Part shown: in pieces, positions 8,898 to 48,037 of the stretch
How positions within the stretch are numbered: the stretch's first letter is position 1
Layout of the letters: every line of letters starts with the position of its first letter
Assembly: GCA_964408485.1 (NCBI GenBank)
Contig: CAYOZJ010000001.1
Span: 92,366-156,365, forward strand
DNA: 64,000 nucleotides
From: an uncultured Gammaproteobacteria bacterium
GTDB taxonomy: Bacteria > Patescibacteriota > Microgenomatia > Levybacterales > UBA12049
Direction of reading: 5' to 3'
The notes under the pieces: generated by a model
The model's input: the letters and a program-made list of their open reading frames with translations, nothing else
The model's database searches: none
What the model was told of the DNA's origin: nothing
Program-made: the position numbers and the translations under genes

Positions 8898-8898
8898 T

Positions 8899-9021
8899 AT
8901 GGAAATTGCACTCATTACTACCATTGTATTTTTTACTGTTAAAGGAATTATTTCTTTACTCGGAATTATCTGGGTTGGGAAAAAAGTTAAGAAATATATC
9001 AGAAGGGAAAATGAAAAATGA
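8899..9021 (+). CDS. Possible 40-aa single-TM micro-protein
   Basis: MEIALITTIVFFTVKGIISLLGIIWVGKKVKKYIRRENEK, one hydrophobic helix plus a basic tail. Weak evidence. Confidence 0.25.
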   Translation: MEIALITTIVFFTVKGIISLLGIIWVGKKVKKYIRRENEK

Positions 9022-9500
9022 AAAAGCAGACTGCCCAAACTTTTCCATTTGATTTAGAATTAATCTTAGGGGAACAAAGGGATAAATATGTGGACTTTAA
9101 TTTACCAATTTACAAAGTTTTTCGTGGTTGGGAAAGATTAAATCCGTATCTCGAACAAGATAACTATTTTGTTGTATTTGAGTCAAAAAGAAAAAGGTAC
9201 CCTTTCTTAGACCAATTACTCGATTTTGCAGATTACTTTGCATATCGGGAAGCAAAGAAGATGCCTGGATTCCGAGGGTACTACCGAGGTGAATTGGACA
9301 AAGAAACACACCTCTGCCGATCTTTTTGCGTTTGGGATAAAAAAGAATCTGCTAGGAATAGCGCAAGACAACCTAAACACAGGAAGGCAATGCTTATGAC
9401 AAAGGTTGCTTTTGACCTGTACAGAGTCAAAAGATATATTGTCCAAAAAAGAAAAGATAAAATCCTTTTCCAAGAATATATCCCGGAAAGGAGTAATTAA
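9018..9500 (+). CDS. Hypothetical protein, 160 aa, translationally coupled to hisS
   Basis: Stop/start overlap TAATG with hisS. AAGGAG Shine-Dalgarno for hisS lies inside its 3' end. Confidence 0.5.
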   Translation: MKKQTAQTFPFDLELILGEQRDKYVDFNLPIYKVFRGWERLNPYLEQDNYFVVFESKRKRYPFLDQLLDFADYFAYREAKKMPGFRGYYRGELDKETHLCRSFCVWDKKESARNSARQPKHRKAMLMTKVAFDLYRVKRYIVQKRKDKILFQEYIPERSN

Positions 9501-10753
9501 TGAAAACGAATAAGAATTCTGATATCATTACAAGTATGCAAGTACAAACACTAAAAGGATTCAGGGATTTTTTGGGAGCTGAAGCTCGAAAAAGAAAATA
9601 TGTTATGGACACTTTCAAAAGAGTGTTTGAGTCCTATGGATTTGAGCCACTTGAAACTCCTGTAATGGAATATGAGGAGATTCTTATGGGTAAATATGGT
9701 GAAGAGGGTGATAAATTAATGTATCGGTTTGAGGATAATGGGCAAAGACGTGTTGCACTTAGATACGACCAAACTGTTCCTAGTTCCCGATTTGTTGCAC
9801 AATACCTGAATACTCTTCCCATGCCTTTCAAGAGGTATCAAATGCAAAATGTATACCGCGCCGAGAATACACAAAAAGGACGGTATCGAGAGTTTTTACA
9901 ATGTGATATTGATATTTTTGGCATTGATTCTGCATTGGCAGATACAGAAATTATTCTTACCATGATAGCGAGTTATAAAGCGCTTGGTTTTAAGAATTTT
10001 AAGATTCTTCTTAACGACAGATCTAACTTTGAAGGACTTACTACAGAAACAATTATCGTAATTGATAAGCTTAAAAAAATTGGCGAGGACGGAGTCTGTC
10101 AAGAAATGGTTGATAAAGGAATTACGAAAACTAAAGAAGAAGCGTATAACTTACTCCAATCCGTGGTTGAAAAAAAACTAACAGAAAGACTAACTGAAGT
10201 GTTTGCTCTTCTTGAAAAAGAAGGAATCGATAAAGAGACTATTGTCTTCTCCCCTACTCTAGCTCGTGGACTTGATTACTACACAGGAATGATTATAGAA
10301 ATAGAAAGTCCTGATTATCCAGTTGGATCTCTCGCAGGGGGTGGACGATTTAATAATCTTATTGGCATGTTTGCAAACAAACAAATCCCAGCAGTTGGAA
10401 TTGCAGTTGGGTTTGATAGAACAATGGAAGCAATGGAAGCATTAGATTTATTTCCAAAAAATTTAAGCGAAGCATCAGCAAAAGTATTGGTAACAATCTT
10501 TAATAAAGAATTAGAAAAAAAATCATTGGAAATAAGTTCTCGCTTACGCTCGAACAATATAAATACTGAGGTCTACCTATCTGATTCTAAAATGGAAAAG
10601 CAGTTAAAATATGCTGATCAAAAAGGAATCCCGTATGTTGTGATTATTGGTCCAGAAGAACTAGATAAAAATGTTGTAACACTTAAGGATTTAAAAAATA
10701 GAACACAAGAACAAATGACTTTAGAAAACGTTATAAAAAAGCTTAATCAATAA
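9500..10753 (+). CDS. hisS: Histidine--tRNA ligase
   Basis: Class II aaRS motifs and HisRS signatures (GFRDFLG, RYDQTVP, QCDIDIFG, GGGRFNNL). C-terminal anticodon-binding domain. Confidence 0.95.
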   Translation: MKTNKNSDIITSMQVQTLKGFRDFLGAEARKRKYVMDTFKRVFESYGFEPLETPVMEYEEILMGKYGEEGDKLMYRFEDNGQRRVALRYDQTVPSSRFVAQYLNTLPMPFKRYQMQNVYRAENTQKGRYREFLQCDIDIFGIDSALADTEIILTMIASYKALGFKNFKILLNDRSNFEGLTTETIIVIDKLKKIGEDGVCQEMVDKGITKTKEEAYNLLQSVVEKKLTERLTEVFALLEKEGIDKETIVFSPTLARGLDYYTGMIIEIESPDYPVGSLAGGGRFNNLIGMFANKQIPAVGIAVGFDRTMEAMEALDLFPKNLSEASAKVLVTIFNKELEKKSLEISSRLRSNNINTEVYLSDSKMEKQLKYADQKGIPYVVIIGPEELDKNVVTLKDLKNRTQEQMTLENVIKKLNQ

Positions 10754-20196: not shown

Positions 20197-22725
20197 TTAT
20201 TGGTCAGGAGTTGTTGTATTGTTAGTTTCATTTGTAAGATCGTACGCATTCTCCATACGCTTTGCAATGTGTTGTAAATTAAAAGGCAAACTATATAACC
20301 CTAAGTCATATATATCTTCAGCAGAAAGTTCTTGATTAGTTTCTAGCTTGGCATGTAAGCTCTGCACCCTCTTAAGAGCCTCTTCCCTATTTCCAAAAAG
20401 CTGTTCTATTCTTTCCTGCGGAAATGCATTCGGCACCTGTTGATTGAGATTGGTAAAATAATTGCCAATTTGCGGGACTGCATCGGGATACTGCTGATAC
20501 ATACTACTAACTTGTCCAAAAAGGTTTCTCACCAACCTTGCTTGATGAGTCGGATGAACAGTTGCTTCGTACACGTATGAAAAAAGTGTATTTGGCCCAT
20601 GATACGAAGACTCTAACTGATTGAAAGAAAATTGCGAAAGAGTATTATCTTCTCTCACCCGCGCAATAAAGGAATTTGGAATCATATTATACAATATACT
20701 AGAACGTGAGTCTGTTTCTCCAATAGTAAATAAACCTAATTCTCCACGATTGTCTGTTACTTCAAAATGCTCAATATCTTCGTTAAGAGAAATTGGACTC
20801 ATAAGCGACGGGTCAACAACAGCAAAGTCGCCCTCTCGGCGTGGTAACGTACCTTCAGAGACAGGTGTTTTAGTTGGATCATCCAATTGTTCAAAAAGAC
20901 TTGTAAGTGTTATGGATTTGGGTAATTCCACAACTTCTGGCATTGCTGCAGTAGCTTGCTCAACAACTTCTTGCTCGACAACTGGAGCTTCGACTTGCAT
21001 CGGAAGTATTATTTCCTCTCCCTTAAGCATTTCCATGACCTTTTTAATATCAACACTATGTCCTAAAAATTCAATTTGGCGAATTTGCTCGGGAGTAAGA
21101 GTAAGTGGATCTATTTTCAGAACTTCTTCCAATGCTTTTCTTCTTTCAGGCCATACAGCGAGAGTCTGCTCGGTGTTAACTGTATAAGGAAAAAGTTCGT
21201 CTACAACTACCTCTTCATTAATGGTTGGCTCAACGGAATCAATAGCAACAAGCCTATTAGGAGTAGATACATCATGAAGTATTGCTTGTTCTTTTTGAAT
21301 AAATGGAACAAGTTGTTCTTCAATAAAATCCTGCTCCTCTGAAGAGAGATTTTCTTGCAACCCCGCATATTCTCTATGAAACTGTTGTTGAAAGGCAATC
21401 TGTATTACCTGACCCTCTTCATTATTATTTCCGATCAGTTGTGGTTCTATAACTTGCAAATCATGAAATGCAAATTGCCTTAATGAGTCTGGTGTTTGAG
21501 CTTCAAAAAATTCTTGAAGAAGCTGTGGATTAACCTCATGAACACGCAGAATTGTCTCCCCTATTTGTTGATAAAGCATTGCTTGCTCTTCGGGGCTTTC
21601 TGCAGATGCAGCAGCTAAAGCAAATGTACCAGAGTCATTGTCGGTTAATGCTTCTGCATTTTTAAAACGCTTATTTTCTTCTAAAACACGGGCTGGTGGA
21701 AAAACTTCCTCATTGGGGAAGAGATGTTCTCCATCAGGTTCAAGAACAAAGAAATTTTTACGAAGCTGTAATTCTTTTAGTTGCTCAAATGTAAGATTTT
21801 GCGCAAAATCCACAGGAACACCTTTTTCTAGCCAATAAGGATTGCCAGGTTGTGCAGGTGGTTGAAGACGTGCTAAAACATCTTTCACATTATGAGGCTT
21901 CCCTTTTTCTAATGCCTGCGGTCTTTCAGCTTGTTCTCTATGCTTCTGCAACCATTCCCATGCAGTGCTCTCGTCTTCATTCAATGTTGCGTCAGGTGTG
22001 ACTTGCTCTAATGCTTGCTGATCATGTAATGCTCGGGTTTTTGCAACAAGGAGAGCACCCAGTGCATGCTGCGCTTTCTCACCTGCAACTTGCAAAAGAG
22101 GAGCAACTCTTTGAAGATTATCAATAATTTTTTCAGGATCTCCATTACTTTCTCGACTTGCTGCCTCGACCAGAGTATCAATAAGCTTTTTTGTATCATT
22201 TCCGCTTTTGTCTGTAGGACTTAGGTAAGTAGCATAGAAAATAAGCATACGAGCAAAATCATTGTCGATACTTTCCTGAGATAAGGGACGTTCGCCTCCT
22301 ATAGCCTGCAAGTCATTATTTATAGTGGCTATAAGAGAAATTACTTTTGGGTCCTGTAATTCTTGTTGTGTTTGGTCTATTGACCCATGGAGACCAACAG
22401 CCTGCAATATATGTATAACATCTATGTCTGTTTGCTTAGCAACCCACTGACGAATTCCAGGTTTTTCTCTATCTCCTGCAATCCATGTAATCAATTCTTG
22501 CCCAAAATTTAACTTTTTCCCCTGGGATTGTTGTTCTTGCCAATACCCATCCCTATCTGAAAGGGATCCTCCCTGAAAAGCAGCAAGTACATCTGCAGGA
22601 ATGTCTTGACCAAGTGGATGAGATCCTTCTTGCGTAAGAATTCTCTTACTCACGTTTACAGAGTATCGAGAAAGTAAAAGTCGACGTTTCTTCTCCTCTT
22701 CAGGAGTACGTCTTCGTTCAATCAT
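20197..22725 (-). CDS. Large acidic hypothetical protein, 842 aa, no TM and no recognisable domain
   Basis: Uninterrupted 2.5-kb ORF rich in E/Q/L. Co-oriented between ctpA and murB with two small P/G-rich ORFs upstream. Confidence 0.55.
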   Translation of the reverse strand: MIERRRTPEEEKKRRLLLSRYSVNVSKRILTQEGSHPLGQDIPADVLAAFQGGSLSDRDGYWQEQQSQGKKLNFGQELITWIAGDREKPGIRQWVAKQTDIDVIHILQAVGLHGSIDQTQQELQDPKVISLIATINNDLQAIGGERPLSQESIDNDFARMLIFYATYLSPTDKSGNDTKKLIDTLVEAASRESNGDPEKIIDNLQRVAPLLQVAGEKAQHALGALLVAKTRALHDQQALEQVTPDATLNEDESTAWEWLQKHREQAERPQALEKGKPHNVKDVLARLQPPAQPGNPYWLEKGVPVDFAQNLTFEQLKELQLRKNFFVLEPDGEHLFPNEEVFPPARVLEENKRFKNAEALTDNDSGTFALAAASAESPEEQAMLYQQIGETILRVHEVNPQLLQEFFEAQTPDSLRQFAFHDLQVIEPQLIGNNNEEGQVIQIAFQQQFHREYAGLQENLSSEEQDFIEEQLVPFIQKEQAILHDVSTPNRLVAIDSVEPTINEEVVVDELFPYTVNTEQTLAVWPERRKALEEVLKIDPLTLTPEQIRQIEFLGHSVDIKKVMEMLKGEEIILPMQVEAPVVEQEVVEQATAAMPEVVELPKSITLTSLFEQLDDPTKTPVSEGTLPRREGDFAVVDPSLMSPISLNEDIEHFEVTDNRGELGLFTIGETDSRSSILYNMIPNSFIARVREDNTLSQFSFNQLESSYHGPNTLFSYVYEATVHPTHQARLVRNLFGQVSSMYQQYPDAVPQIGNYFTNLNQQVPNAFPQERIEQLFGNREEALKRVQSLHAKLETNQELSAEDIYDLGLYSLPFNLQHIAKRMENAYDLTNETNNTTTPDQ

Positions 22726-28733: not shown

Positions 28734-30560
28734 CTAGCGCACAGGGCTTCCTGGATTAAACGAGATTGTTGGAGTAGCTGTTGGTTTTGTTGTCGGTGTT
28801 GGCGTAATAGTAGGAATAGATGTAGGAATGGGAGTTATGGTAGCAGTAACAGTTGAAACAGATGTTGGTACAATAACTGTTGGTGTTGCAGAAAGTGTTT
28901 GAGTAATTTGTGCAACAGCTGCACTAGCAGAAACATTAGAAAGCCTCGTTATAGAATATGGAGGTAATTGTAGAAGAGTTGGTGGCACTTGACCTGAAAT
29001 ACTTGTTGTCAAAAATGAACTATCTCCTGTTGAAAGAGCTGAGGGAGTTGCGCTTAATTGATTATAAAATTGGGCATTCAGATTTGGAGACAATGAAATT
29101 GTATACGCTGTTGATGAAAGATTGAAAATAATTGCTTGCTTGTATTGTCCACCAGAGAAAAGATACCCAACAAGAGATGGAAAACTGCCAGCGCGTCCAG
29201 AAAGCTGTGGATTGGATGAAAACTGAAGAGAAGCAAATGTTTTTTGTCCATACATCCCTCTCATTACTTCAGTCAAAACAAGTCCTGCAGAACTTAATCC
29301 ATCTTGAATAGTTGTTGGAGCATTTGTACAACCGCTTCGATGGGTATATGCGTCTGTTGTCTTAAAAATGAGTGAAAAATTTGCATTTGCCCATAACGTA
29401 TAGTTAGTAGCTAAATTAATTCTACTGTCAGAAAGCATGCTTGTCAGGAATATTCCATCAAAAAGGCCACTTCCCCAACTTCCATCAATAGCATTATACG
29501 GATCGGAGTAGTTGTATTCTGTAAACCAAAACTTTCCATTTCCCCATGTTTGTAATTGATTCAAAAATGGTTTAATTCCATTTTTCTCATAAAGATATGC
29601 TTGACTCAATAAATCTTTTACACCCTGATCTGTCTGAAGATGTGCATATTCTGATTGCTGCTTCTGGCAATATGTTGTGCCTGTTACTGCCATATTCGGC
29701 GCGGGATATGGATGAATCGTGAGATAATAATTTTTTCCTTTGAGTGCTGTAATAAGCTGGCTATTCCATGTACTATTCGTCCCAAAAACTGCATTTACTC
29801 CCACCTGAACTGTACCATCCCATGCATGAATTCCGTCAATCCATCGCTTGGCAATATTTCCATACGAAGTACCACTTGGAAAAATGCATGTTTCATCTGG
29901 ACTAGAGTTTGGTTGATTTTTATATACCTCATTCCCAAGTTCTACATATTTTACCGATATTCCCATTTGTCTTGCAGCTTTCAGGAAATTTAGTTGATCG
30001 GTTAACACACTTTGCCATTTGCTATCCCATACTTCATTGCATTTCAGATTTATTCCATTGGTTGGTGTAATAAGATTTAATACAAAGATAGGAGTCCCAT
30101 GTGTTTTATCAACCATAGTCTTAAGATCGGTGAGTGTTTGGGTGTAATGAGTGAGATAATATGGATACCCATTTACATACGTCGAACTATATTTTGGTCC
30201 ATGAAGATTCCAGAAAGTTCCATCGTGCCAATTATAATAATTAGCCACTCCCGATGGAAAACGAAAAACAGTTGGTAAGAGATTTCCCAGATTTTGTCCA
30301 AGTGTCCCACCAAGACGTGAGGGATCAATACCATCTATATCTACTCCTGCAAAAGGACCATGAAGCGAAGATTGACTACCAATGCTTACAGAAATTGTAC
30401 CCGTTGATGCTCCTAGTACATTTGACTTAGTCAATATAAGCACTCCAATTAGTACTATGGCCATAAGAAGTGAAAAAGAAATACCAATATATTTAAGATT
30501 AAAAAATGATTTATGCTTCTTATGCCTTACAACCTTTTTAACAACTTTCTTTTTCTTCAC
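28734..30560 (-). CDS. Membrane-anchored exported putative glycoside hydrolase (clan GH-A-like TIM barrel) with a Thr/Pro-rich C-terminal tail
   Basis: Basic N-terminus plus TM helix. VELGNEVY resembles the NEP acid/base motif of clan A glycosidases. C-terminal TPT/IPT repeats. Confidence 0.4.
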   Translation of the reverse strand: MKKKKVVKKVVRHKKHKSFFNLKYIGISFSLLMAIVLIGVLILTKSNVLGASTGTISVSIGSQSSLHGPFAGVDIDGIDPSRLGGTLGQNLGNLLPTVFRFPSGVANYYNWHDGTFWNLHGPKYSSTYVNGYPYYLTHYTQTLTDLKTMVDKTHGTPIFVLNLITPTNGINLKCNEVWDSKWQSVLTDQLNFLKAARQMGISVKYVELGNEVYKNQPNSSPDETCIFPSGTSYGNIAKRWIDGIHAWDGTVQVGVNAVFGTNSTWNSQLITALKGKNYYLTIHPYPAPNMAVTGTTYCQKQQSEYAHLQTDQGVKDLLSQAYLYEKNGIKPFLNQLQTWGNGKFWFTEYNYSDPYNAIDGSWGSGLFDGIFLTSMLSDSRINLATNYTLWANANFSLIFKTTDAYTHRSGCTNAPTTIQDGLSSAGLVLTEVMRGMYGQKTFASLQFSSNPQLSGRAGSFPSLVGYLFSGGQYKQAIIFNLSSTAYTISLSPNLNAQFYNQLSATPSALSTGDSSFLTTSISGQVPPTLLQLPPYSITRLSNVSASAAVAQITQTLSATPTVIVPTSVSTVTATITPIPTSIPTITPTPTTKPTATPTISFNPGSPVR

Positions 30561-36296: not shown

Positions 36297-36971
36297 TTAT
36301 AAAGAAGCTTTTTCTACTTCAGAAAGTTTTTTTCGGTGAAACACATTGTTTAGAATAACTATTCCAACCACGATAAAAATCCATGAGAGCGGAGCAAGAA
36401 CCGGATGAATAGAGATAAGTGGAATAGACATCGTAAAAACAACCGGCGCAATGAGCATTCGCATTGTATAGTAACGAATATCTCTCTCGCTCATGTGCGT
36501 ATCTACCAATCTATTATGATGACTAGCATACACCCAAATGGCTGCTAAAAAATAACCCACAACTGCCAAGCTTGCACTATAAAACACCACGATAACAGGT
36601 GTCATAAAGAAATCTCCATACAAATCAACAGGAAATGGTAAAAAGGATAAAAAGATAAGAAATACTAAATTCAACCACACAAGAGAACCGTTATACTTTT
36701 TAACCATACTAAAAATAGCATGATGGTTAAGCCAATAGTACCCAATAACAAGAAAGCTAATAATATTTGCTAAATATTGCGGCCAAAGTATAGTAAATGC
36801 AGATAAAAATTGTGTACTTACTTGTTGTCTAACAATTTGGGGTAAGTCAATTTTTAACACAAGGAGTGTTGCAGCAAAAGCAAAAACAGCATCGGAAAAT
36901 CCTAATACCCTGTCTTCGCTAATAAGATTTCCTACTTCACCGGCAATCTTTTTCTCCTCTTTGTCTTCCAT
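36297..36971 (-). CDS. TMEM175/DUF1211 family potassium channel-like membrane protein
   Basis: Signature RVLGFSDAVFAFAATLLVLKI in TM1 and a six-TM architecture. Confidence 0.7.
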   Translation of the reverse strand: MEDKEEKKIAGEVGNLISEDRVLGFSDAVFAFAATLLVLKIDLPQIVRQQVSTQFLSAFTILWPQYLANIISFLVIGYYWLNHHAIFSMVKKYNGSLVWLNLVFLIFLSFLPFPVDLYGDFFMTPVIVVFYSASLAVVGYFLAAIWVYASHHNRLVDTHMSERDIRYYTMRMLIAPVVFTMSIPLISIHPVLAPLSWIFIVVGIVILNNVFHRKKLSEVEKASL

Positions 36972-38343: not shown

Positions 38344-38769
38344 TTGACAGATGATTGTATCCATGATTTGATGAATATAATGCATCTTCCTGAAAGGACT
38401 AAACAAATTATTCTCGCCTGTGTTGTTAGTATTGTTGTTGTCGGACTTGGGCTTTTTGCATCAACCCAATCAGTTACCTATTCCGGCACTCTTCCCTGCG
38501 CTGACTGTGTCGGCATCAAGACAACGCTTACTCTTTACGCCAATCAGACCTACCAATTAAAGTCTCTTTATATCGATAAGGGAGCGCCATTTACCGAAAA
38601 AGGGTCATGGCAAGAAGAGTGGAAAAATAATATGCAGGTGTATGTACTAAAAAGTAACGGAATGCCTAGTTATTACCAAATCATTACCTCAACGACAATA
38701 AAAATGCTTGATGGAGATGGCAATCAAATTCAGGCGCCTTTTAACCAGATACTCAGACGCGTAGATTAG
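38344..38769 (+). CDS. NlpE N-terminal domain (copper-resistance lipoprotein-like) protein
   Basis: YSGTLPCADCVGIKTTLTLYANQTYQL matches the NlpE_N CXXC region. N-terminal TM/signal anchor. Confidence 0.65.
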   Translation: MTDDCIHDLMNIMHLPERTKQIILACVVSIVVVGLGLFASTQSVTYSGTLPCADCVGIKTTLTLYANQTYQLKSLYIDKGAPFTEKGSWQEEWKNNMQVYVLKSNGMPSYYQIITSTTIKMLDGDGNQIQAPFNQILRRVD

Positions 38770-39140
38770 TGAACTACTTTTTGTGCGTGGTTTTTTATCT
38801 TCGTAAGTAATTCTTCCATATCAAATGGTTTTGCAATATAGTCATCAAAGACAGCACGAGCTGCATTTTTCTTAATTTCACTATTTGCTGAGACTAAAAT
38901 AACAGGAAGATTTTTCATTTCCTTATTTCTTCTAATTTCATTGCATACATCAACCCCATTTACTCCCGACATCCACAAGTCGAGAAGAAGTAAGTCTGGC
39001 TTAGTGTCTCGTATCCGTGAAATAACCTTCTTCCCTTCTCTCACCACATCAACATCGTAATCTGCAATTTGTAACATAAGTTGTATTGCATCAAGAATGC
39101 CCTGGTCGTCATCTGCAATAAGGATTTTCGGTTTTACCAT
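38766..39140 (-). CDS. Stand-alone response regulator receiver domain (CheY-like)
   Basis: ILIADDD...D52-like LLLLDLWMSG...K. No output domain. Confidence 0.85.
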   Translation of the reverse strand: MVKPKILIADDDQGILDAIQLMLQIADYDVDVVREGKKVISRIRDTKPDLLLLDLWMSGVNGVDVCNEIRRNKEMKNLPVILVSANSEIKKNAARAVFDDYIAKPFDMEELLTKIKNHAQKVVH

Positions 39141-39181
39141 GGCTATAAGTGTAAAGTATACGTATAAGAATCATGTAAGAA

Positions 39182-41104
39182 TTACATTATTCTTCTTTTC
39201 TGGATAGGAACGCTCATGTGAAATGTTGAGCCTTTTCCTTCACTACTGTCTACCCAAATTTCTCCACCTAACCGCTTCATAATTTCGCTAGAGATATACA
39301 ACCCTAGCCCAAGACCGGGGAATGTTTCTGTACTTGGTCCGCTTACCCTAAAAAATTGCCTAAAGACACTTTTTTGTTTTTTCTTTGGTATCCCAATGCC
39401 AAAATCTCTAACAGCAATTTCTACACTGGATTTCTTTACCTTTGCAGTTATGATAATTTCTTTTGCATTTGGTGAGTACTTAATTGCATTAGAGAGGAGA
39501 TTAATGATAACTTGCTCAGTCCTCTCTTTGTCTCCATATACTTCTCTTTTAATATTTCCCTGAAGTACAATTTCATGTTTTTCTGTTGTTAACTGCATTG
39601 ACTCAACAGTATCTCGAAGCATGCTATCAAAATCAAAAAAATCAACATTTAATGGAAGCTGCCCTGATTGCATTTTTGTAATATCAAGCAAATCGCCAAT
39701 CAAATTAGTAAGCTTGGTTAGCTGTCCATTCATTTTATCTAAAAGCTGTAAGGATTTTTCATCCCCTCGACGCTGCGCAAAAACGTGTAATACGTGAGTA
39801 AATCCCTTAAGCGATGTGAGAGGCGTTTTTAGCTCATGCGATGCGGTTGCAATAAAGTTATCTTTTTGTTTTTCTAATTCTTTCTGTCCTGTGATATCTC
39901 GAGTAATATTGGAAACCCCAATGACCTCACCCTTATTATTCGTAACAGGAGAAATACTCATCGAGACAGGAATAGTTTGCTTATTCTTTTTTAACCGCAA
40001 TGTTTCTATGTGTTCTATGCTTTTCCCTTTACCAATTTGTTGAATAATTTCCCCTTCTTGTTGACGTAAATTTTTCGGAATAATAAGATTAATGGACTGC
40101 CCAACAGCCTCTTTACTTGTGTATCCGAGAAGTTTCTCCGCACCTTTATTCCATGTTGTAATAATTCCTTCCAATGTTTTACCCATAATTGCATCTTCTG
40201 ACGATTCAACAAGCGCAGCTAAACGGTACTTTGCTTCCTCCTCCTGCTTTTTTTCAGTAATGTCATCTATCGTGGAAACAGCAGCAATAATCTGATTTTT
40301 GGCATTTTTAATTGGCGCAGCACTGACACGAAGAAAAACGTGCTTTTTGTCTTTCCTCACATATTCTATTTCTTCAGAGCTAATTGTTTCACCTTTCGTC
40401 AGAGCCCTCGTAATTGGCCAATCTTTTGCCTCCAAAAATAGATTTCCCCGCAAAGCACTCGAAGACTTACCATCCTTTCGCAAGCTTGTTTTTATTTCCT
40501 TTCCCAAAAAAGAAATCAGCTGCTTATTTCCTTCTACTCTTCTTTTCTTATCTACAATGAGTACCCCTATGGGCAACTGCTGCATAATCGCAGAAAGTCG
40601 TCTCTCATTTTCCTCGGCTAGTATACGTGCTTCCATTTCTCGACCTATCAAAATGTCTATTGCGTGCTTAAGATACGCAATGACTGTAGACATACCAAGA
40701 TATACAATTCCCAGAAGGATTGTTGTTTGAATCCCTGAATACAGTTGACTTCCTGAGTACTGCTTGGAAAGAATAATAAAGAGGTAATACAACACTGTCA
40801 TTCCAACGGTAGTAAAGCCTCCCACAAAAGCATCGCGAAAAGAAAAATACAGAATAAGCGTGATAGACATTACGATAACAATGCCACTGTATAAACCGTT
40901 GTTATGAAGAATAAAAAAGGATAAAACTTCAATAGCAATGAATACAATAAGACTTACTAAAAACGGGAAACCAAATGAGTACCTTTGCACACCTAATCTA
41001 CTAAATGGATTGATGTAATAGGAAAAATTTCGCAAAAGCGATTTGTGTAATTTTTCTTCTATTCGCTGTTCTATTCTATTAAGAAGGGTCACGTGAGCCA
41101 GCAA
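39182..41104 (-). CDS. Sensor histidine kinase with membrane N-terminus and PAS domains
   Basis: H-box HELKTPLTSL, N/G1/G2 boxes (NLLSNAIKY, DFGIGIP, GLGLGLYIS). About 5 N-terminal TM helices and two PAS-like segments. Confidence 0.9.
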   Translation of the reverse strand: MLAHVTLLNRIEQRIEEKLHKSLLRNFSYYINPFSRLGVQRYSFGFPFLVSLIVFIAIEVLSFFILHNNGLYSGIVIVMSITLILYFSFRDAFVGGFTTVGMTVLYYLFIILSKQYSGSQLYSGIQTTILLGIVYLGMSTVIAYLKHAIDILIGREMEARILAEENERRLSAIMQQLPIGVLIVDKKRRVEGNKQLISFLGKEIKTSLRKDGKSSSALRGNLFLEAKDWPITRALTKGETISSEEIEYVRKDKKHVFLRVSAAPIKNAKNQIIAAVSTIDDITEKKQEEEAKYRLAALVESSEDAIMGKTLEGIITTWNKGAEKLLGYTSKEAVGQSINLIIPKNLRQQEGEIIQQIGKGKSIEHIETLRLKKNKQTIPVSMSISPVTNNKGEVIGVSNITRDITGQKELEKQKDNFIATASHELKTPLTSLKGFTHVLHVFAQRRGDEKSLQLLDKMNGQLTKLTNLIGDLLDITKMQSGQLPLNVDFFDFDSMLRDTVESMQLTTEKHEIVLQGNIKREVYGDKERTEQVIINLLSNAIKYSPNAKEIIITAKVKKSSVEIAVRDFGIGIPKKKQKSVFRQFFRVSGPSTETFPGLGLGLYISSEIMKRLGGEIWVDSSEGKGSTFHMSVPIQKRRIM

Positions 41105-41128
41105 ATTATAGCATATGTATGCAAGAAG

Positions 41129-42658
41129 TTAGACAAATCCTGGAAAGAAATCTTTCTTTATGTGGAATTGAGAAATACCAATTTCCTTAAGCGTTTTTTC
41201 AAATCCCACAACCATACCATGTGGACCGGACAGATAAAAGAGTCTCTCTGTAAAATCTGGAATTTCTTTTCGTATCATATCAGGAGTAATTCTCCCAACC
41301 TGCCCTTTCCAATTTTTTGGCACACTGTCTATATCGGTAAGTGTGTAGATTGTTTTTACTCCAATTTTTTCGCCAATTTGGAAAACATTTTTATACATTA
41401 TTTCCGAATCCGCTTTATTGGAATACATAAGGATAATATCTCGCTTTTCGTCACTATCTATACAATATTTAATCATGCTTCTGAAAGGTGTTATTCCTAT
41501 ACCACCGGCTATAAAGACAAGCTTTTTCTCTAACGACTTTGGCAATGTAAACTCACCACCAAGACTTCCCACTGTAATACTGTCTTTGTCTGAGAGATGG
41601 TGCAAAGCGCGCTTAAAACTACTCCCATTTTCATAAAATTTTACTCCCAAATGAATTGCATTTTCTGTTGGAGAAGATGCAACAGTAAAATACCGCCTGT
41701 TTCCCCTGCTGTCAGTGCTCGGGTGCTTAAGTGTCCACTCCATGTATTGTCCTGGCATAAAGTGAAGCTTTTCTTGAGACGCAAAAACAAATTCCACTTC
41801 GTCTGCACCATATTGTGTTTTTTCTTTCAAATGCAACAGAAGCTTTTGTTTAGGACTTACAATATACGAAAAAATATTTGCAACAACTAATGTTAGCTCT
41901 GGTGAAGAATAAAAAGCGCCAACATGGATATGTGGATCAATAAGCAAAACAACTATTGTCCCGTATACTACTTGTAACAATTTTGTTGGTGGAGATGTAA
42001 GTGGTTCTGTTAACATAACAGTTGCAAAAAATACAATTGCAGAATCTAAGAAAAGTGAAGTAACACTGCTATACATAGGTGTCCCCTGCCAAATTGCAAA
42101 GAGAATAGTTATACCAATAACTCCGAGAAGAAATACAGAAATAAGAATAACTTTTTGAAGTTTTTTAAGGATAAGAAATCCGCCAATAGCGACAAACGGC
42201 AACATAACCGCAGTTCCAATCCACCAACTTGCATATCTCCCTAAAATAAATGCTGTTAAAACAACAGCAATTGCCGCGGGATTAAAAAGATGCTTTTTTT
42301 TGATTGCTAAAATATATTTTGACGCCATGGCAAAAACGCCAGCAAAAATAAAAAATGGAATATCCCTGACAGAAGTCATGGGAGTAATAATAAAAGTGAG
42401 AATAAGTGCGGTAATGTATACAGATTCTACATTCGTTGGCGCTTTAAAAAGGAATGCAAGTATCTTATTGCTTATCCAACAAACAATTGTCAAGAAAAGT
42501 GAAGAAAGTATGAGCGCACCTGGTGAGTAGGAGAGTAATCCACCATATGAAAGGATTGCTGCACACGCTACCCAACCAATTAAAACATACAGCACTACAC
42601 GGTACATGGTAATTCTGTCTAAAAAATTATCTAAAAGATTCAACATAAAAATCGTCAT
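41129..42658 (-). CDS. Fusion protein: RnfD/NqrB-like polytopic membrane domain plus C-terminal FNR-like FAD/NAD(P)-binding oxidoreductase domain
   Basis: N-terminus has KHLFNPAAIAVVL and MLTEPLTSPP, resembling the RnfD/NqrB FNPA and TDPVT motifs. C-terminus has FNR motifs RRYFTVASSP (RxYS), GGIGITP and SGPHGMV. Confidence 0.65.
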   Translation of the reverse strand: MTIFMLNLLDNFLDRITMYRVVLYVLIGWVACAAILSYGGLLSYSPGALILSSLFLTIVCWISNKILAFLFKAPTNVESVYITALILTFIITPMTSVRDIPFFIFAGVFAMASKYILAIKKKHLFNPAAIAVVLTAFILGRYASWWIGTAVMLPFVAIGGFLILKKLQKVILISVFLLGVIGITILFAIWQGTPMYSSVTSLFLDSAIVFFATVMLTEPLTSPPTKLLQVVYGTIVVLLIDPHIHVGAFYSSPELTLVVANIFSYIVSPKQKLLLHLKEKTQYGADEVEFVFASQEKLHFMPGQYMEWTLKHPSTDSRGNRRYFTVASSPTENAIHLGVKFYENGSSFKRALHHLSDKDSITVGSLGGEFTLPKSLEKKLVFIAGGIGITPFRSMIKYCIDSDEKRDIILMYSNKADSEIMYKNVFQIGEKIGVKTIYTLTDIDSVPKNWKGQVGRITPDMIRKEIPDFTERLFYLSGPHGMVVGFEKTLKEIGISQFHIKKDFFPGFV

Positions 42659-42725
42659 TCTGGCTTGTCCAGAATCTGATCATACAGAAAGATCCTGGAT
42701 GCGCTCCGCTTACCAGGATGACAGT

Positions 42726-43469
42726 TTAAACAACATATTTCTCAAATCCACTTGTCATGGTTGCAATACCATTCGTATCTATCATATATCCTTCAAGTCC
42801 CTTTTGTCTTTCAAGAAATTGTACGCTCATTTTCTGCATAGCAAAACAAGCAGTTGCAAACCTGTCTGCTTCATAAATATTTGGACCTATTACTGTCAAA
42901 CTAACGATAGTTTGTAACGGAGCACTCGGTGCAAAAGGATTATACACATGTTGGCCACGTACATATGTGCCAGTTGTTGCAATACCTTCTGTTGCCAAGC
43001 AAACACGTTTGATAATTTCTGATTGATTGAATGGATTTCTTATCCCAACTGTCCATTTTTCTCCTTTTCCATTTTCCCCTGCTACTTGTATATCCCCTCC
43101 CGCATCAATAAAAAAGTTTTTAAATCCATCACGTGTTAGTTGCTGTGCAGCTTGCCAAATTGCCCATCCTTTAACCATACCTGATGGATCAATGAGTCCA
43201 TTTAATTTTTTAATATCAAAGTAACCATTTGTTTCTTGCTTAGTCAGTTCTGATAAATGTAAAACTTCTTTCATTTCTTTTGAAAGATCTTTTTCCTTTA
43301 TTTCGTGACGGTTAAGCTTTGAGATTTCGCTATTTTCTTTATAGGTGCTAAATCTGTTATCTATTTCTTGAAAATAGGCAAAGATTGCATCGATATCTTT
43401 TTGAGATGCTTTTCTATCAACAATCTCAACGGTTATGGGCATACCCATGAGAAGTCTTGTCTCATGCAT
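42726..43469 (-). CDS. apbE: FAD:protein FMN transferase (ApbE family)
   Basis: RLLMGMPITVEIV N-terminus, IDAGGDIQVAG motif and the conserved ApbE C-terminal Mg/FAD-binding region. Confidence 0.8.
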   Translation of the reverse strand: MHETRLLMGMPITVEIVDRKASQKDIDAIFAYFQEIDNRFSTYKENSEISKLNRHEIKEKDLSKEMKEVLHLSELTKQETNGYFDIKKLNGLIDPSGMVKGWAIWQAAQQLTRDGFKNFFIDAGGDIQVAGENGKGEKWTVGIRNPFNQSEIIKRVCLATEGIATTGTYVRGQHVYNPFAPSAPLQTIVSLTVIGPNIYEADRFATACFAMQKMSVQFLERQKGLEGYMIDTNGIATMTSGFEKYVV

Positions 43470-43475
43470 AGAAGA

Positions 43476-43922
43476 TTAATTTGCTTGTGCTAAGGCGGAT
43501 GCTAAAGATTTTTGAAACGCTTCTGTATCTTGTGTTGCACCACTGACAATGTCTACCTGAGAACTTTGTACAGCAATCGCCTCCTGCTTAAGAAGAGGTT
43601 TTGCAAAATCAGTTACTTCCTGTGTATGTCCAAATCCCTCTCCAGGCATCTGAAGGAAAATAACATCAGTCAATTTTCCCCCACTAATTACTGCTTTTAC
43701 CTGAATTGGTCCATATCCCCTGTCTGCCTGCACTGTGTTGCCTGTATACGTACCGTCCTTATACGTTGTCGAACTAGAAGAAGGGGTTGGTGTATTCCCA
43801 GAAGAGTTACCAGGTGTTGGAGTCGGAGTCCCCATCATATCTTGATCACCTTTTTTCAAATAAAAGAATGCGCCACCACCAATAATAAGTAAGATAACAG
43901 CAGCAAGTAAAACTTTTTTCAT
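43476..43922 (-). CDS. FMN-binding domain (FMN_bind, NqrC/RnfG-like) exported protein with SGAT flavinylation motif
   Basis: Signal anchor, a Thr/Pro/Ser linker, then YKDGTYTG...GGKLTDV...VDIVSGATQDTEAF. The Thr in SGAT is the canonical ApbE flavinylation site. Confidence 0.75.
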   Translation of the reverse strand: MKKVLLAAVILLIIGGGAFFYLKKGDQDMMGTPTPTPGNSSGNTPTPSSSSTTYKDGTYTGNTVQADRGYGPIQVKAVISGGKLTDVIFLQMPGEGFGHTQEVTDFAKPLLKQEAIAVQSSQVDIVSGATQDTEAFQKSLASALAQAN

Positions 43923-44033
43923 GTTGTTCCATTATTCTAAAAATCCTTTATGAATGCAAGATGAAAAATGAAGATGAGATCCTTCGTTATCGCTCAGGAT
44001 GACAAAAGAATTTTAAAATTATAAATCCTTTTG

Positions 44034-44495
44034 TCAATTTTGACTTTGCGTCATTCCATTAGGAAGAGTTTGTGATTGGGATTGACTATCACTATCTTGA
44101 TTTTGTGACTGACTGCCTTGTGAATTAGAACTACTTTGTGATTGATAATACCAAACAGTCGGTTGAGTTGTATATGTTGTTGTAGTTGTCGTTGTTGTCG
44201 TATTTACTCCACCTTTTGTTGTGCTTCCTTTTTGAAAGGACGGTGTTGGCCCCGATTTAATCGGGGTTGGTGTTGGAGTTGATGCAACAAATCCATATGG
44301 TGTTGGTGTTGGGGAAATTGTTGGAAAAGATGAAGGCTGTGTTACTACTGGCTTTTTATTAAAAAATAATCCTCGAATAACAAAAAATAGGATAAATATA
44401 ACAACGATTACTGCCACAATTCCTAAGATAAGTCGTCCGCGTGATCCTTCTTCTTCCATGACCGGTAGTATAGCACTTCCGAGGCTAATTGACAA
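44034..44495 (-). CDS. Membrane-anchored Thr/Ser/Gln-rich low-complexity protein. Contains the PIKSGP palindrome insert.
   Basis: TM helix plus a TPTPTPIKSGPTPS segment encoded by CCCCGATTTAATCGGGG (44250-44266). Poly-Thr and SQSQ repeats. Confidence 0.4.
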   Translation of the reverse strand: MSISLGSAILPVMEEEGSRGRLILGIVAVIVVIFILFFVIRGLFFNKKPVVTQPSSFPTISPTPTPYGFVASTPTPTPIKSGPTPSFQKGSTTKGGVNTTTTTTTTTYTTQPTVWYYQSQSSSNSQGSQSQNQDSDSQSQSQTLPNGMTQSQN

Positions 44496-44524
44496 TATAG
44501 GACGCTCCAGGACTAGTTTTGAGG

Positions 44525-44929
44525 CTATTTTTTACTTTCAGGCTGGAGAAGACCAAAGATATTTCCTTCTGTATCCAGACACATTGCATTCATTCCAACG
44601 CCTGGAATATTTTGAGGTTGGCTTGTCGACTTACCCCCATTCGCTTTTACTTTTTCTAAAATGTCTGTCAAGTTTTCTACCTGAATTGTGCAGACATACC
44701 CATTACTTGCCTCGCCACGCGGTACTGCTCCTTTCCCTTTTCGTGGAAATAACCCACCATTAATTCCGCCACCTGGTTTGTTACTTCCCCATTCAGGCGC
44801 CCCAGTACTTACCATCCAATATTCTTGATCTCCCCACTGTTTTAATTCCCATCCAAAAACAGATTCATAAAACTTCTTTGCGCGAGCTGGGTCATCTGCT
44901 TGAATTTCAAAGTGAACAACAAGATTCAT
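44525..44929 (-). CDS. VOC family (glyoxalase/bleomycin-resistance fold) protein
   Basis: HFEIQADDPARAKKFYESVFGW N-terminus with the typical VOC beta-alpha-beta-beta-beta pattern. Confidence 0.65.
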   Translation of the reverse strand: MNLVVHFEIQADDPARAKKFYESVFGWELKQWGDQEYWMVSTGAPEWGSNKPGGGINGGLFPRKGKGAVPRGEASNGYVCTIQVENLTDILEKVKANGGKSTSQPQNIPGVGMNAMCLDTEGNIFGLLQPESKK

Positions 44930-45783: not shown

Positions 45784-46338
45784 TCAATGTGCAGAAGATG
45801 AAGCAGTAGGAGCTGCTGTTGGCGACCCTGTATACGTAAATGTCCTCGTAAGGGTTTTCTGATCCGAGCTAACAGTGCTATTTACCCGCAAGTTAAATTG
45901 CACTTGTCCACTTGGCAAATTATAGAGACACGGGCTAGAGTTACCAAAATCAGACCATGCCCCTCCATTAATTCGATACGACCACACAACCGAACAATAC
46001 GTTGCGTCTGAGTATTGAATTGTTATACAGACTGGATTATCACTCACGCTGTCCCCTTCTTGCGGAGATGTAATACTAATAGGTCCTACTGTTTTTTGGC
46101 ATGACGGAGAAGATGTTGGCTGATTAGATGCATTTTGCGGAACAATAATAACCTGAGGTGATGGAGAAGCAGAAGGTGTTACCGCTTTATTTTGATGAGT
46201 AAGACTTGTCCAATTAAGGATAATTGCTGTAACAAGAACAGGAATAGAAAGAATACCAATCAACCAATCTAAATGTATTTTTTGAAGTCGCACTCTGGCA
46301 AACCTCTGCCAAGCTCGTTGCATTTTTGCAATATTCAT
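45784..46338 (-). CDS. Membrane-anchored exported hypothetical protein
   Basis: TM helix near the N-terminus, then a Ser/Thr/Pro-rich and Cys-containing ectodomain. Confidence 0.4.
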   Translation of the reverse strand: MNIAKMQRAWQRFARVRLQKIHLDWLIGILSIPVLVTAIILNWTSLTHQNKAVTPSASPSPQVIIVPQNASNQPTSSPSCQKTVGPISITSPQEGDSVSDNPVCITIQYSDATYCSVVWSYRINGGAWSDFGNSSPCLYNLPSGQVQFNLRVNSTVSSDQKTLTRTFTYTGSPTAAPTASSSAH

Positions 46339-46401
46339 ACCTAATTCTTAGTATATATCTTAAATACAAACTTGGAAACCCTTAAGAAAACTATTCGAAG
46401 A

Positions 46402-47022
46402 TTAGTATCCGGTTGGAGCACCATATTGTTGCATCATTTGCTTTACTTGCTCTTGAGACATACCTGTTGGAGCACCGGACGGCATTGCTTTCATCATTTC
46501 AGACATATCGGTAAATTTTACGTCAGTTGGAGGTACAAAAAGCTCATCATCAACTACTGCGACCTTACAGGAATCCTTGAATTTTTCAAGCATAGAGAGT
46601 GCATTTGAGCCTTGATTTTGCGCAGATTCCGTTGACTTCACTGCCGAACTCGTTGGCATAGGAGTAACCGTAATGCTGGGAATAGTCATAACACTTCCTG
46701 TTTTACTGCTTACCTGCCAAAAATAGATTTTTTTGTCCTTCATTATCATGCTTTGTGCATCAGGCTTTTGTGGGTTGGTATCTACGCGTACTGCTCCTGA
46801 CTTTATGTAGGCTGTTGTTGCTGTCCCATTGTCTGCAGTAAATTGACACTGCAAAGAAAGATTGCGTGTTAACGCATCTTGAATAGTATTAAAAACTCCC
46901 CCGTGCTCTTCTCCGGCCATACTCGGTGATTTCACACTATGTGCAAATTTATAATATGCAAGACTACCTGCAGCAATGAGGAGTAAAACAATAACCAGAA
47001 GTCCCCACATCCACTTTTTCAT
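46402..47022 (-). CDS. Secreted hypothetical protein
   Basis: Signal peptide MKKWMWGLLVIVLLLIAAGSLA. Confidence 0.45.
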   Translation of the reverse strand: MKKWMWGLLVIVLLLIAAGSLAYYKFAHSVKSPSMAGEEHGGVFNTIQDALTRNLSLQCQFTADNGTATTAYIKSGAVRVDTNPQKPDAQSMIMKDKKIYFWQVSSKTGSVMTIPSITVTPMPTSSAVKSTESAQNQGSNALSMLEKFKDSCKVAVVDDELFVPPTDVKFTDMSEMMKAMPSGAPTGMSQEQVKQMMQQYGAPTGY

Positions 47023-47082
47023 TTCATAATGAGCGTAGTAAAATTTTTATTCCTTGTCAATACATGCTACACTTTTATTGTC

Positions 47083-47385
47083 ATGGAAGAATCAACATCT
47101 CGAAAAAAAGAAATTCTAGAACTTCGTTACGAAGTACTTCGGAAAAGAAAAGAAATCATGCCAAGTATTTGGCTTTTTATTGGACTTTTGTGGGGACTTC
47201 TTCTTAATTTGTTAGCCAATATTATTCACGATATGTTTAAGTCGCTCAATTACTGGCTGTATGTAGAAATAGTTTTTGGACTTACTGTCTTAACACTCAT
47301 TATCTTTTTGTGGTTTTTAAATAAATATTATTTTGCCCCAATAGAAAAAGATCGTGAAGAGATTAGAAAATTAGAAGAATTGTAA
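47083..47385 (+). CDS. Small membrane protein, hypothetical
   Basis: Two predicted TM helices. Start trimmed to MEESTS. Confidence 0.3.
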   Translation: MEESTSRKKEILELRYEVLRKRKEIMPSIWLFIGLLWGLLLNLLANIIHDMFKSLNYWLYVEIVFGLTVLTLIIFLWFLNKYYFAPIEKDREEIRKLEEL

Positions 47386-47386
47386 C

Positions 47387-48037
47387 CTACTTATCGTCGA
47401 AGATATGAGACGTTGACATTATTACTGCACCAACTGTCACTCCATTACTATCTTTAACTGGTACTACTACTTCATCTACTCCTGCTGGATAATCTGGACT
47501 TTTTTCTGTAAATCGTCTTGGCTTGCCGTCTTTTATGGTCTGTAAATCTGCATTTCCACCATTGGTATACATTTTCCCAACATTTGCAGGAAGTGTATCT
47601 GCCAAAACAAATTGATGCGTATCTTCGACAACAATGTCACGTCCTGTTTGGTGAGATAAAAGTGAAACTAGTTTTTGCAGACTCTCTTTATCTGTCCACA
47701 ACACCTTTCCTGTGGGTACATTTACAATAGTTGTTGCAAGCATCTGAGCATCCTCTGTTGCATCTGCTCCAATATATTGCTGCTTACTTGCCATTGCCGC
47801 TTGCTGAGCAAAGAAATACATTGCACCCTTTAACTTTTCATGCTTGAATACTAAAACAACTACAGCCAAAACCAAAACAACGCAAAAAAGAAGAACAACT
47901 GCATTAAGAAAAATATGAAGCTCTGGTCCAACCTTCTTTATAACTTTGTGTAACATTATATATCTATCATGCACACAAATATTTTTATCTGTCAAGGGCT
48001 TCTTGGTTCTTATTCGCCAATCTGCTGTTTTGTGCAT
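47387..48037 (-). CDS. Membrane-anchored hypothetical protein
   Basis: One TM helix (residues ~45-65) followed by a soluble domain. Confidence 0.4.
   Translation of the reverse strand: MHKTADWRIRTKKPLTDKNICVHDRYIMLHKVIKKVGPELHIFLNAVVLLFCVVLVLAVVVLVFKHEKLKGAMYFFAQQAAMASKQQYIGADATEDAQMLATTIVNVPTGKVLWTDKESLQKLVSLLSHQTGRDIVVEDTHQFVLADTLPANVGKMYTNGGNADLQTIKDGKPRRFTEKSPDYPAGVDEVVVPVKDSNGVTVGAVIMSTSHIFDDK

Follow-up and report, generated by a model that had tools for sequence, protein, structure and literature searches.

The locus at positions 38766-43922 of the stretch analysed here raises the question of what kind of membrane redox system its five co-oriented genes encode. The stretch (the window) comprises 64,000 nucleotides (nt) of contig CAYOZJ010000001.1 (assembly GCA_964408485.1, contig positions 92,366 to 156,365), deposited under the name of an uncultured Gammaproteobacteria bacterium and placed by GTDB in the Patescibacteriota (Levybacterales). 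A preliminary description, made from the letters alone, had seen in the locus a two-component-regulated, flavinylation-dependent module, serving as a minimal NAD(P)H-driven unit for extracytoplasmic electron transfer or ion pumping. All five open reading frames (ORFs) are indeed present at exactly these coordinates, and each of them has Pfam support. All of them lie on the minus strand, however, so that the transcription order is FMN_bind, ApbE, the fusion of an RnfD/NqrB-like membrane domain with an FNR module, PAS kinase and receiver (with intergenic gaps of 6, 67, 24 and 41 nt); thus the receiver and the kinase, described as coming first, are the last genes, and the Thr/Ser-rich protein and the VOC enzyme, described as lying downstream, are in fact encoded upstream of the cassette.

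The conserved three-gene cassette

We consider it probable that the FMN_bind, ApbE and fusion genes make up one of the Nqr/Rnf-like flavinylation-associated membrane redox systems. The term 'NQR/RNF-like' was applied to PF03116+PF00175 fusions in flavinylation gene clusters by Meheust et al. (2021, eLife; PMC8238504), who reported 127 clusters, mainly from Actinobacteria and the candidate phyla radiation (CPR), while Huang et al. (2024, mSystems; PMC11334425) described an Nqr/Rnf-like membrane subunit devoid of the Thr conserved in NqrB and RnfD. As characterized in these papers, the system includes an anchored FMN_bind protein, ApbE and one protein with NqrB/RnfD-like N-terminal and PF00175 C-terminal domains; the flavinylated Thr is missing from its membrane domain, and all this (the anchor being a predicted one), as well as the host groups (CPR included), is the same here. 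Moreover, genes of FMN_bind (PF04205) with the [S/T]GA[S/T] motif and of ApbE (PF02424) are located directly upstream of the fusion gene in the window, and the Ktedonobacteria homologues are 51-53% identical to the fusion protein of the window; the representative modelled by Huang et al. is the pair of Ktedonobacter racemifer (PMC11334425). The differences are the score of PF03116, which is below the Pfam cut-off here, and the kinase and receiver genes situated directly downstream. As a type of system, the locus is not new.

The conservation of the cassette was assessed in the best 80 loci retained after species-representative genomes had been scanned; in 78 of these the fusion ORF is full-length. 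The order FMN_bind-ApbE-fusion was found in about 58 of them, belonging to at least five phyla, often with overlapping stop and start codons. Recurring across loci of several phyla, the arrangement is not due to chance; starting from ApbE homologues also leads back to the same cassette. The hosts include many classes of Patescibacteria, Ktedonobacteria and other Chloroflexota, Mesorhizobium, Kaistia, Methylocapsa, Phyllobacterium, Spirochaetota and, more distantly, Actinobacteria (Agreia, Herbiconiux, Arthrobacter), while the cassette proteins have their closest relatives among entries named Patescibacteria, Levyibacteriota or Woesebacteria, from which it follows that the window probably belongs to a CPR chromosome. 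The membrane domain alone retrieves 1437 clusters of 50% identity with the threshold set to E <= 0.001, and 350 with E <= 1e-30; among the best 150, the majority have a length of about 500 amino acids (aa) and are thus fused; the latter 350 clusters and the 78 full-length fusions of the best 80 loci compare with the 127 published clusters (PMC8238504). The low published count and the under-representation of CPR, which Meheust et al. themselves stated, may be partly due to their rule that one or more of the target genes had to encode a signal peptide or lipobox (PMC8238504).

As to the kinase and the receiver, their pairing with the cassette is of a different nature. The polytopic PAS sensor histidine kinase (640 aa, 39182-41104, minus strand; Pfam PAS/HisKA/HATPase_c) and the stand-alone receiver (124 aa, 38766-39140, minus strand; Response_reg, 91.6 bits) could be regarded as a functional part of the module, either controlling it or, in the case of the kinase, sensing the redox state and signalling via the single-domain receiver. 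The short gaps that separate both genes from the fusion gene (24 nt) and from each other (41 nt), their common orientation and the lack of a convincing terminator (6 terminator-like matches inside the operon vs 4.1 expected, i.e., not above chance) speak for it, and both genes are probably co-transcribed with the cassette at this locus. An orthologous pair (53-69% identity for the kinase and 54% for the receiver) occurs in the same neighbourhood of the closest relative, locus L083, and in Mesorhizobium, Spirochaetota and some Patescibacteria, too, the cassette repeatedly has two-component genes next to it. However, of the 80 loci only 12 have a kinase or receiver gene at a distance of up to 300 bp from the cassette (16 have one within 2 kb), the side, the strand and the type of the response regulator differ among the loci, and for most of the neighbouring kinases the match to that of the window is confined to the generic kinase core (E about 1e-27). 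In L083 itself the pair is detached from the cassette by two unrelated genes, one of them on the opposite strand. Finally, no DNA-binding output domain was detected by Pfam in the receiver, where Response_reg covers residues 6-116 of 124, which excludes direct transcriptional regulation by it. A conserved two-component partner is thus ruled out by the 12/80 count and the detachment in L083; the pair consists of lineage-specific neighbours located outside the conserved cassette, a functional role of the pair in the module seems unlikely to us, and the designation of the module as two-component-regulated finds no support as a property of the system.

The membrane/FNR fusion protein

The fusion protein (509 aa, 41129-42658, minus strand) comprises a membrane domain (residues 1-270, 41849-42658) and an FNR-type FAD/NAD(P)H-binding module (residues 273-509, 41129-41842). 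The motifs listed in the preliminary description were found, namely HLFNPAA (residues 123-129), LTEPLT (216-221), GGIGITP (385-391) and SGPHGM (477-482), with the exception of RxYS, since the flavin motif literally reads RYFT, a variant of R-x-[YF]-[ST]. The C-terminal module is recognized with confidence by NAD_binding_1 (PF00175; 52.3 bits vs the cut-off of 22, residues 382-484), on the same polypeptide as the membrane domain, and by FAD_binding_6 (25.0 bits), NAD_binding_6 being under its cut-off (17.7 bits). This module had been likened to NqrF, yet the NCBIfam models of Hmp, GbcB, PaaE and Fre (87-65 bits) outscore the nqrF model, which gives 39 bits vs its cut-off of 295 and covers residues 352-503 only; no 2Fe-2S ferredoxin domain was found in the fusion. 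Judging from these scores, the FNR module is generic rather than specifically NqrF-like.

The link of the membrane domain to RnfD/NqrB is weak at the level of primary structure. The NQR2_RnfD_RnfE model (PF03116) yields 19.0 bits, which is below the Pfam cut-off of 27.7; the profile built from 15 homologues of the domain has RnfD as its sole PDB match with E of 0.015, and hhalign with E. coli RsxD gives 85.5% probability for residues 158-262. In contrast to the sub-threshold profile score, the structure bears out the proposed kinship, as the best structural matches of the membrane domain are RnfD/NqrB. The alternative of a ferric-reductase/NOX heme domain is ruled out by these matches and by the presence of a single invariant His, H123, in view of which heme ligation is not expected in the membrane domain. 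The overall similarity to the NOX/ferric-reductase-FNR fusions (SpNOX, PDB 8qq7) is in the general plan, a membrane conduit fused to a C-terminal cytoplasmic NAD(P)H-taking FNR domain; the conduit is a six-helix bis-heme one with two pairs of heme-ligating His there, and has ten helices of the RnfD/NqrB fold with one invariant His (H123) here.

What the membrane domain has lost is the outer loop. In E. coli RsxD, the FNPA motif at residue 121 is followed by the flavinylation motif SQAT with T187 and by the GGVWLL helix starting from residue 230, which makes a span of 109 residues; in the fusion of the window, FNPA is at 125 and the equivalent helix, IGGFLIL, is at 158, i.e., the span is only 33 residues, and scanning of the fusion for [ST]GA[ST] revealed no such motif. 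These two observations together indicate that about 76 residues, including the covalent-FMN Thr, are missing from the membrane domain, so its designation as the flavin-carrying equivalent of the B subunit is not supported. The distribution of charges over 32 homologues (7.1 Lys and Arg in the predicted inner loops vs 0.7 in the outer ones) fits a topology with 10 transmembrane helices, both ends inside, the FNR module in the cytoplasm and the shortened loop (residues 140-152) facing outward.

The FMN_bind subunit and the location of ApbE

The FMN_bind subunit (148 aa, 43476-43922, minus strand; Pfam FMN_bind, 29.4 bits) starts with MKK, followed by a hydrophobic anchor (approximately residues 4-21), a Pro/Thr/Ser-rich linker (approximately 30-53) and a compact FMN-binding domain (55-146). 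The acceptor motif SGAT is present, as had been noted, at residues 127-130 within DIVSGAT, and Thr130 (ACA codon, 43533-43535, minus strand) is the predicted FMN-phosphoryl acceptor: SGAT aligns with TGAT of E. coli RsxG, and the Thr column of the alignment is nearly invariant. Among solved structures, the nearest are 8p2a, which is a domain from a multi-flavinylated protein (E 1.2e-13), and 3o6u, C. perfringens CPE2226, whereas NqrC and RnfG were not among the structure matches. The N-terminal anchor and the [ST]GA[ST] motif are kept across the homologues. In 57 of them, typically 2-3 Lys/Arg occur within the 3-4 residues of the N-terminal flank and mostly 0-2 within the 15 residues past the helix, and this excess ahead of the helix indicates the N-in orientation with the domain outside.

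The ApbE-type FAD:protein FMN transferase (247 aa, 42726-43469, minus strand; Pfam ApbE, 134.7 bits) retains the KGW, His and D...T positions of the solved E. coli and V. cholerae enzymes (4xgw, 6nxi), with QHVYNP aligned to SHIIDP (His) and EADRFAT to TADGLAT (D...T); we take these residues to be those of the FAD/Mg site. According to the alignment, it is about 50 internal residues shorter than V. cholerae ApbE. A typical bacterial ApbE is an exported lipoprotein. In the ApbE of the window, no signal peptide, lipobox or transmembrane segment was found, a circumstance overlooked in the initial reading of the locus: its longest possible ORF begins with MHETRLLMGMPITVE, only 7 residues ahead of the first conserved strand. 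The same holds for the family, as no export signal was found on the cassette ApbE in any of about 60 loci examined. In at least 35 loci the longest possible ORF aligns to the window ApbE from its residue 1-3 onward; in longer ORFs, the extension has no signal-peptide-like hydrophobic stretch (maximum 15-residue hydropathy <=0.6 in close homologues; the overall maximum, 1.46, belongs to L065, a distant one). In Saccharibacteria and Actinobacteria, whose ApbEs are more distant (285-324 aa), the protein mostly begins with the conserved F-x-A-I-G-T strand or a few residues ahead of it, and the 120 closest database relatives, whose starts were called independently, are 238-269 aa long, even though some of them are named 'lipoprotein' by homology.

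A predicted cytoplasmic ApbE is therefore paired with a substrate domain predicted to be outside. This could mean that flavinylation precedes export, that the FMN_bind domain remains inside, or that ApbE is exported by some other route. The first of these options agrees with the activity of a truncated ApbE in the E. coli cytoplasm (PMC12052999) and with the Tat-like appearance of a few N-termini of FMN_bind (IRRFFLS in L015, FRRTAA in L059). We tentatively suggest, being aware that this may well prove wrong, that ApbE of these systems is cytoplasmic family-wide, compact, signal-less and translationally coupled, and that FMN is attached before the domain crosses the membrane, or else the domain never leaves. 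Should this be true, the picture of 'extracytosolic flavinylation' would not apply to the Nqr/Rnf-like systems; in the case of flavinylation before export, it would also explain the existence of an external flavoprotein in bacteria without a known FAD exporter, including CPR. The ApbE without an export signal is the sole lead of this analysis beyond the literature and seems to be new, the accessible portions of the two family papers (PMC8238504, PMC11334425) being silent on this point; in any case, a consistently signal-less ApbE is a concrete problem for the current model.

In an alternative scheme, all the flavin chemistry would be cytoplasmic: the leaderless ApbE would flavinylate FMN_bind inside the cell, FMN_bind would shuttle electrons from FAD of the FNR module to the inner flavin site, and the vacated outer pocket would reduce free extracellular flavin, quinone or a metal chelate. 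Such a scheme agrees with the lack of export signals in about 60 loci, with the small size of the close relatives (238-269 aa) and with the absence of the outer covalent-FMN loop; besides, cytosolic ApbEs with cytosolic substrates are known (PMC12052999). It is contradicted by the MKK start and hydrophobic helix of FMN_bind with the Lys/Arg excess ahead of it, indicative of the N-in/C-out orientation, by the long Pro/Thr/Ser/Ala linkers typical of exported proteins and by the published AlphaFold-multimer model, in which the subunit is placed on the outer face (PMC11334425). Considering this, we find the wholly cytoplasmic scheme quite improbable.

Proposed electron pathway

Returning to the Nqr/Rnf-like conduit, in RnfD/NqrB the two flavins are about 8 A from each other, riboflavin lying toward the cytoplasmic side and the covalent FMN toward the periplasmic one (PMC12174285), and the most economical pathway that follows from these positions would be NAD(P)H, FAD, inner flavin, FMN on Thr130 and an acceptor. 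NAD(P)H would be oxidized by the cytoplasmic FNR module on its FAD, and the electrons would enter the 10-helix domain of the RnfD/NqrB fold, where a non-covalent flavin is probably held near the cytoplasmic side, at the RnfD/NqrB riboflavin site. From there they would pass to FMN attached by ApbE to Thr130 of the membrane-tethered FMN_bind, which may dock on the outer face so that its Thr130-FMN occupies the site vacated by the lost loop. According to Huang et al. (2024), the flavin site of the membrane subunit may be sampled by the FMN that is covalently bound to the small subunit (PMC11334425). Finally, the tethered flavoprotein would hand the electrons to an extracytoplasmic acceptor. In this case the module could be viewed as a counterpart of the NAD-side half of RNF (C-D-G) that operates in the outward direction and has the generic FNR domain in place of RnfC.

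Several points weigh against this reading. The membrane domain scores below the PF03116 cut-off, the inner flavin is assumed, and the mismatch between the locations predicted for ApbE and its substrate is left unexplained by the simple model. Clustering of the genes around the cassette in the 80 loci revealed no universal neighbour, acceptor or partner reductase, and we found in the literature no experimental study of any member of the Nqr/Rnf-like family. Nevertheless, the interpretation in terms of an NAD(P)H-driven electron-transfer unit appears largely right, although already published as a hypothesis; its regulatory and ion-pumping parts are unsupported.

The ion-pumping part deserves a separate consideration. 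A minimal redox-driven pump, in which electron transfer via the NqrB/RnfD-like domain would drive the export of Na+ or H+, might be suspected from the relatedness of the fold to ammonium and urea channels and from the proposal that in NQR Na+ is translocated through NqrB, coupled to the reduction of its FMN (PMC12174285). This very FMN of the B/D subunit is, however, missing here, and coupling in NQR/RNF depends both on the NqrD/E (RnfA/E) switch and on NqrC moving from one of its two partners to the other (PMC12174285), whereas no NqrD/E (RnfA/E) equivalents are present in the cassette. Nor were there any in the window according to phmmer with E. coli RsxA, RsxB, RsxC, RsxE and RsxG as queries, which returned nothing at E <= 10, a weak single-sequence test. 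Pumping is thus very improbable, and still less credence can be given to the membrane domain being mainly a transporter of the Amt/urea-channel-like fold, with the FNR module reducing imported ferric chelate or flavin in the manner of siderophore-interacting reductases and Fre.

If the Nqr/Rnf-like conduit operates as proposed, one polypeptide would lead from NAD(P)H to the outside, and it would be among the few membrane redox devices of Patescibacteria, a group which, to our knowledge, is generally regarded as lacking respiratory chains. It could be used for NAD(P)+ regeneration or for reducing extracellular iron or other external compounds. With its hundreds of clusters of 50% identity, the family is widespread, and its list of three genes makes it attractive for reconstitution.

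Comparison with other redox systems

The cassette resembles the RnfC-D-G part of RNF (PDB 8ahx, 7zc6), but it is devoid of RnfA, RnfB and RnfE; none of the RnfA/RnfE pair, RnfB and RnfC was found in the cassette here or in the 80 related loci. The D-like domain has no covalent-FMN loop or motif, RnfC with its FMN and two [4Fe-4S] clusters is replaced by the fused FNR module, and FMN_bind is a minimal one of about 90 aa, nearer to 8p2a and 3o6u than to RnfG. Compared to the NqrB-C-F part of Na+-NQR (PDB 7xk3), the cassette lacks NqrA, NqrD, NqrE and the 2Fe-2S ferredoxin domain, as well as the N-terminal quinone-site helices and the Thr-FMN of NqrB, and the similarity of its FNR module to NqrF does not exceed that to Hmp, BenC or Fre. 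With the flavin-based extracellular electron transfer of the Listeria type (Ndh2, EetA/B, DmkA, PplA, FmnB) the cassette shares an ApbE-family transferase, a small tethered FMN_bind as the outer carrier and NADH as the ultimate donor. However, the membrane step there is performed by Ndh2 and the demethylmenaquinone pool, while here it would be performed by one membrane-spanning polypeptide, and FmnB is an exported lipoprotein supplied by an FAD exporter, in contrast to the ApbE without an export signal found here.

Transcription of the locus

The best sigma-70-like promoter match (TTGACA-16-TAAAAT, 11/12) is situated at 44010-44037 on the minus strand, 88 nt upstream of the FMN_bind start codon, and is likely to mark the start of the cassette transcript. 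As promoter-like sites show no excess over the chance expectation in the region (18 vs 22.5 expected), only the position and the quality of this match are suggestive. As for an FMN riboswitch or another structured leader, it was rejected, as there was no Rfam match at the gathering score in the window; at E <= 1, one irrelevant weak sRNA match was the only one in 38600-44700, and the fold of the 5' leader was no better than those of shuffled sequences (z = -0.05). A 28-nt sequence, GTCATCCTGAGCGATAACGAAGGATCTC, is located in the leader at 43976-44003 (minus strand), between the promoter-like site and the FMN_bind start, in a single copy in the window; presumably, it resembles short repeats of other genomes.

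The FMN_bind and ApbE genes share the reading frame at this locus, being separated by TAA and two codons, which could suggest a read-through fusion. This was dismissed: the spacing in other loci is 2, 4 or 6 nt or a 4-nt overlap, so the shared frame should be considered coincidental.

Neighbouring genes and other features of the window

Among the genes within about 5-6 kb of the fusion that do not belong to the cassette, those of MacB-type ABC ATPases/permeases (21 of the 80 loci) and HlyD-type adaptors (12 of 80) were, two-component genes apart, encountered most often; kinase/regulator genes were found in 19 and 15 loci. VIT1 iron-transporter genes occur in four Mesorhizobium loci, which agrees with the link to iron noted by Meheust et al. 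(PMC8238504), and genes of MsrA and MsrB occur in three loci each.

The cassette itself shows some variations. In some relatives it is preceded by two tandem FMN_bind genes (L083, 4210-5226; L004, 6955-7955), and in L003 and L084 there is no ApbE gene between those of FMN_bind and the fusion. In L085 (1-1817) and L086 (1624-4008), a fusion of a DAO-type flavoprotein with a Rieske domain, of about 800 aa, followed by a cold-shock gene, is located just upstream of the cassette; it is possibly a redox partner or simply a matter of lineage synteny. The window also encodes a DAO protein (382 aa, 6728-7876), far from the cassette.

L083, whose fusion protein is 65% identical to that of the window, is syntenic over the whole neighbourhood. 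A Y1-type transposase gene (2290-2964) is inserted there upstream of the VOC gene, and the two genes between the fusion and the kinase (7567-9609) encode a 185-aa exported protein and, on the opposite strand, a glycosyltransferase; these insertions indicate that the neighbourhood has been rearranged around the intact three-gene core.

Directly upstream of the cassette of the window, a membrane-anchored low-complexity Thr/Ser/Gln-rich protein (44034-44495, minus strand) and a VOC/glyoxalase-fold protein (44525-44929, minus strand) are encoded. Both are syntenic in L083 (57 and 74% identity, respectively) and are not kept family-wide, another VOC gene being present in L014 only. Further upstream, at 45784-48037 (minus strand), there are genes of three exported or membrane proteins (184, 206 and 216 aa), of which the last contains sCache_3_2 and the other two have no family match; the three follow in the same order in L083 with 61-74% identity. 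On the other side, a 141-aa protein that contains a CADC motif and matches the N-terminal domain of NlpE (87.4 bits) is encoded at 38344-38769 on the plus strand, convergently with the receiver gene, whose stop it overlaps by 4 nt; NlpE of E. coli is a lipoprotein that senses envelope stress and copper.

In the rest of the window, there are housekeeping genes (DnaB, HisRS, CysRS, DnaX, YchF) as well as large ORFs without a family match, two of which, at 20197-22725 (842 aa) and 28734-30560 (608 aa), both on the minus strand, have no Pfam match at E <= 1e-5. A homologue of the TMEM175-family potassium channels (endo/lysosomal type; 92.7 bits) is encoded at 36297-36971 on the minus strand, adjoining genes of an MFS transporter and a HAD hydrolase.

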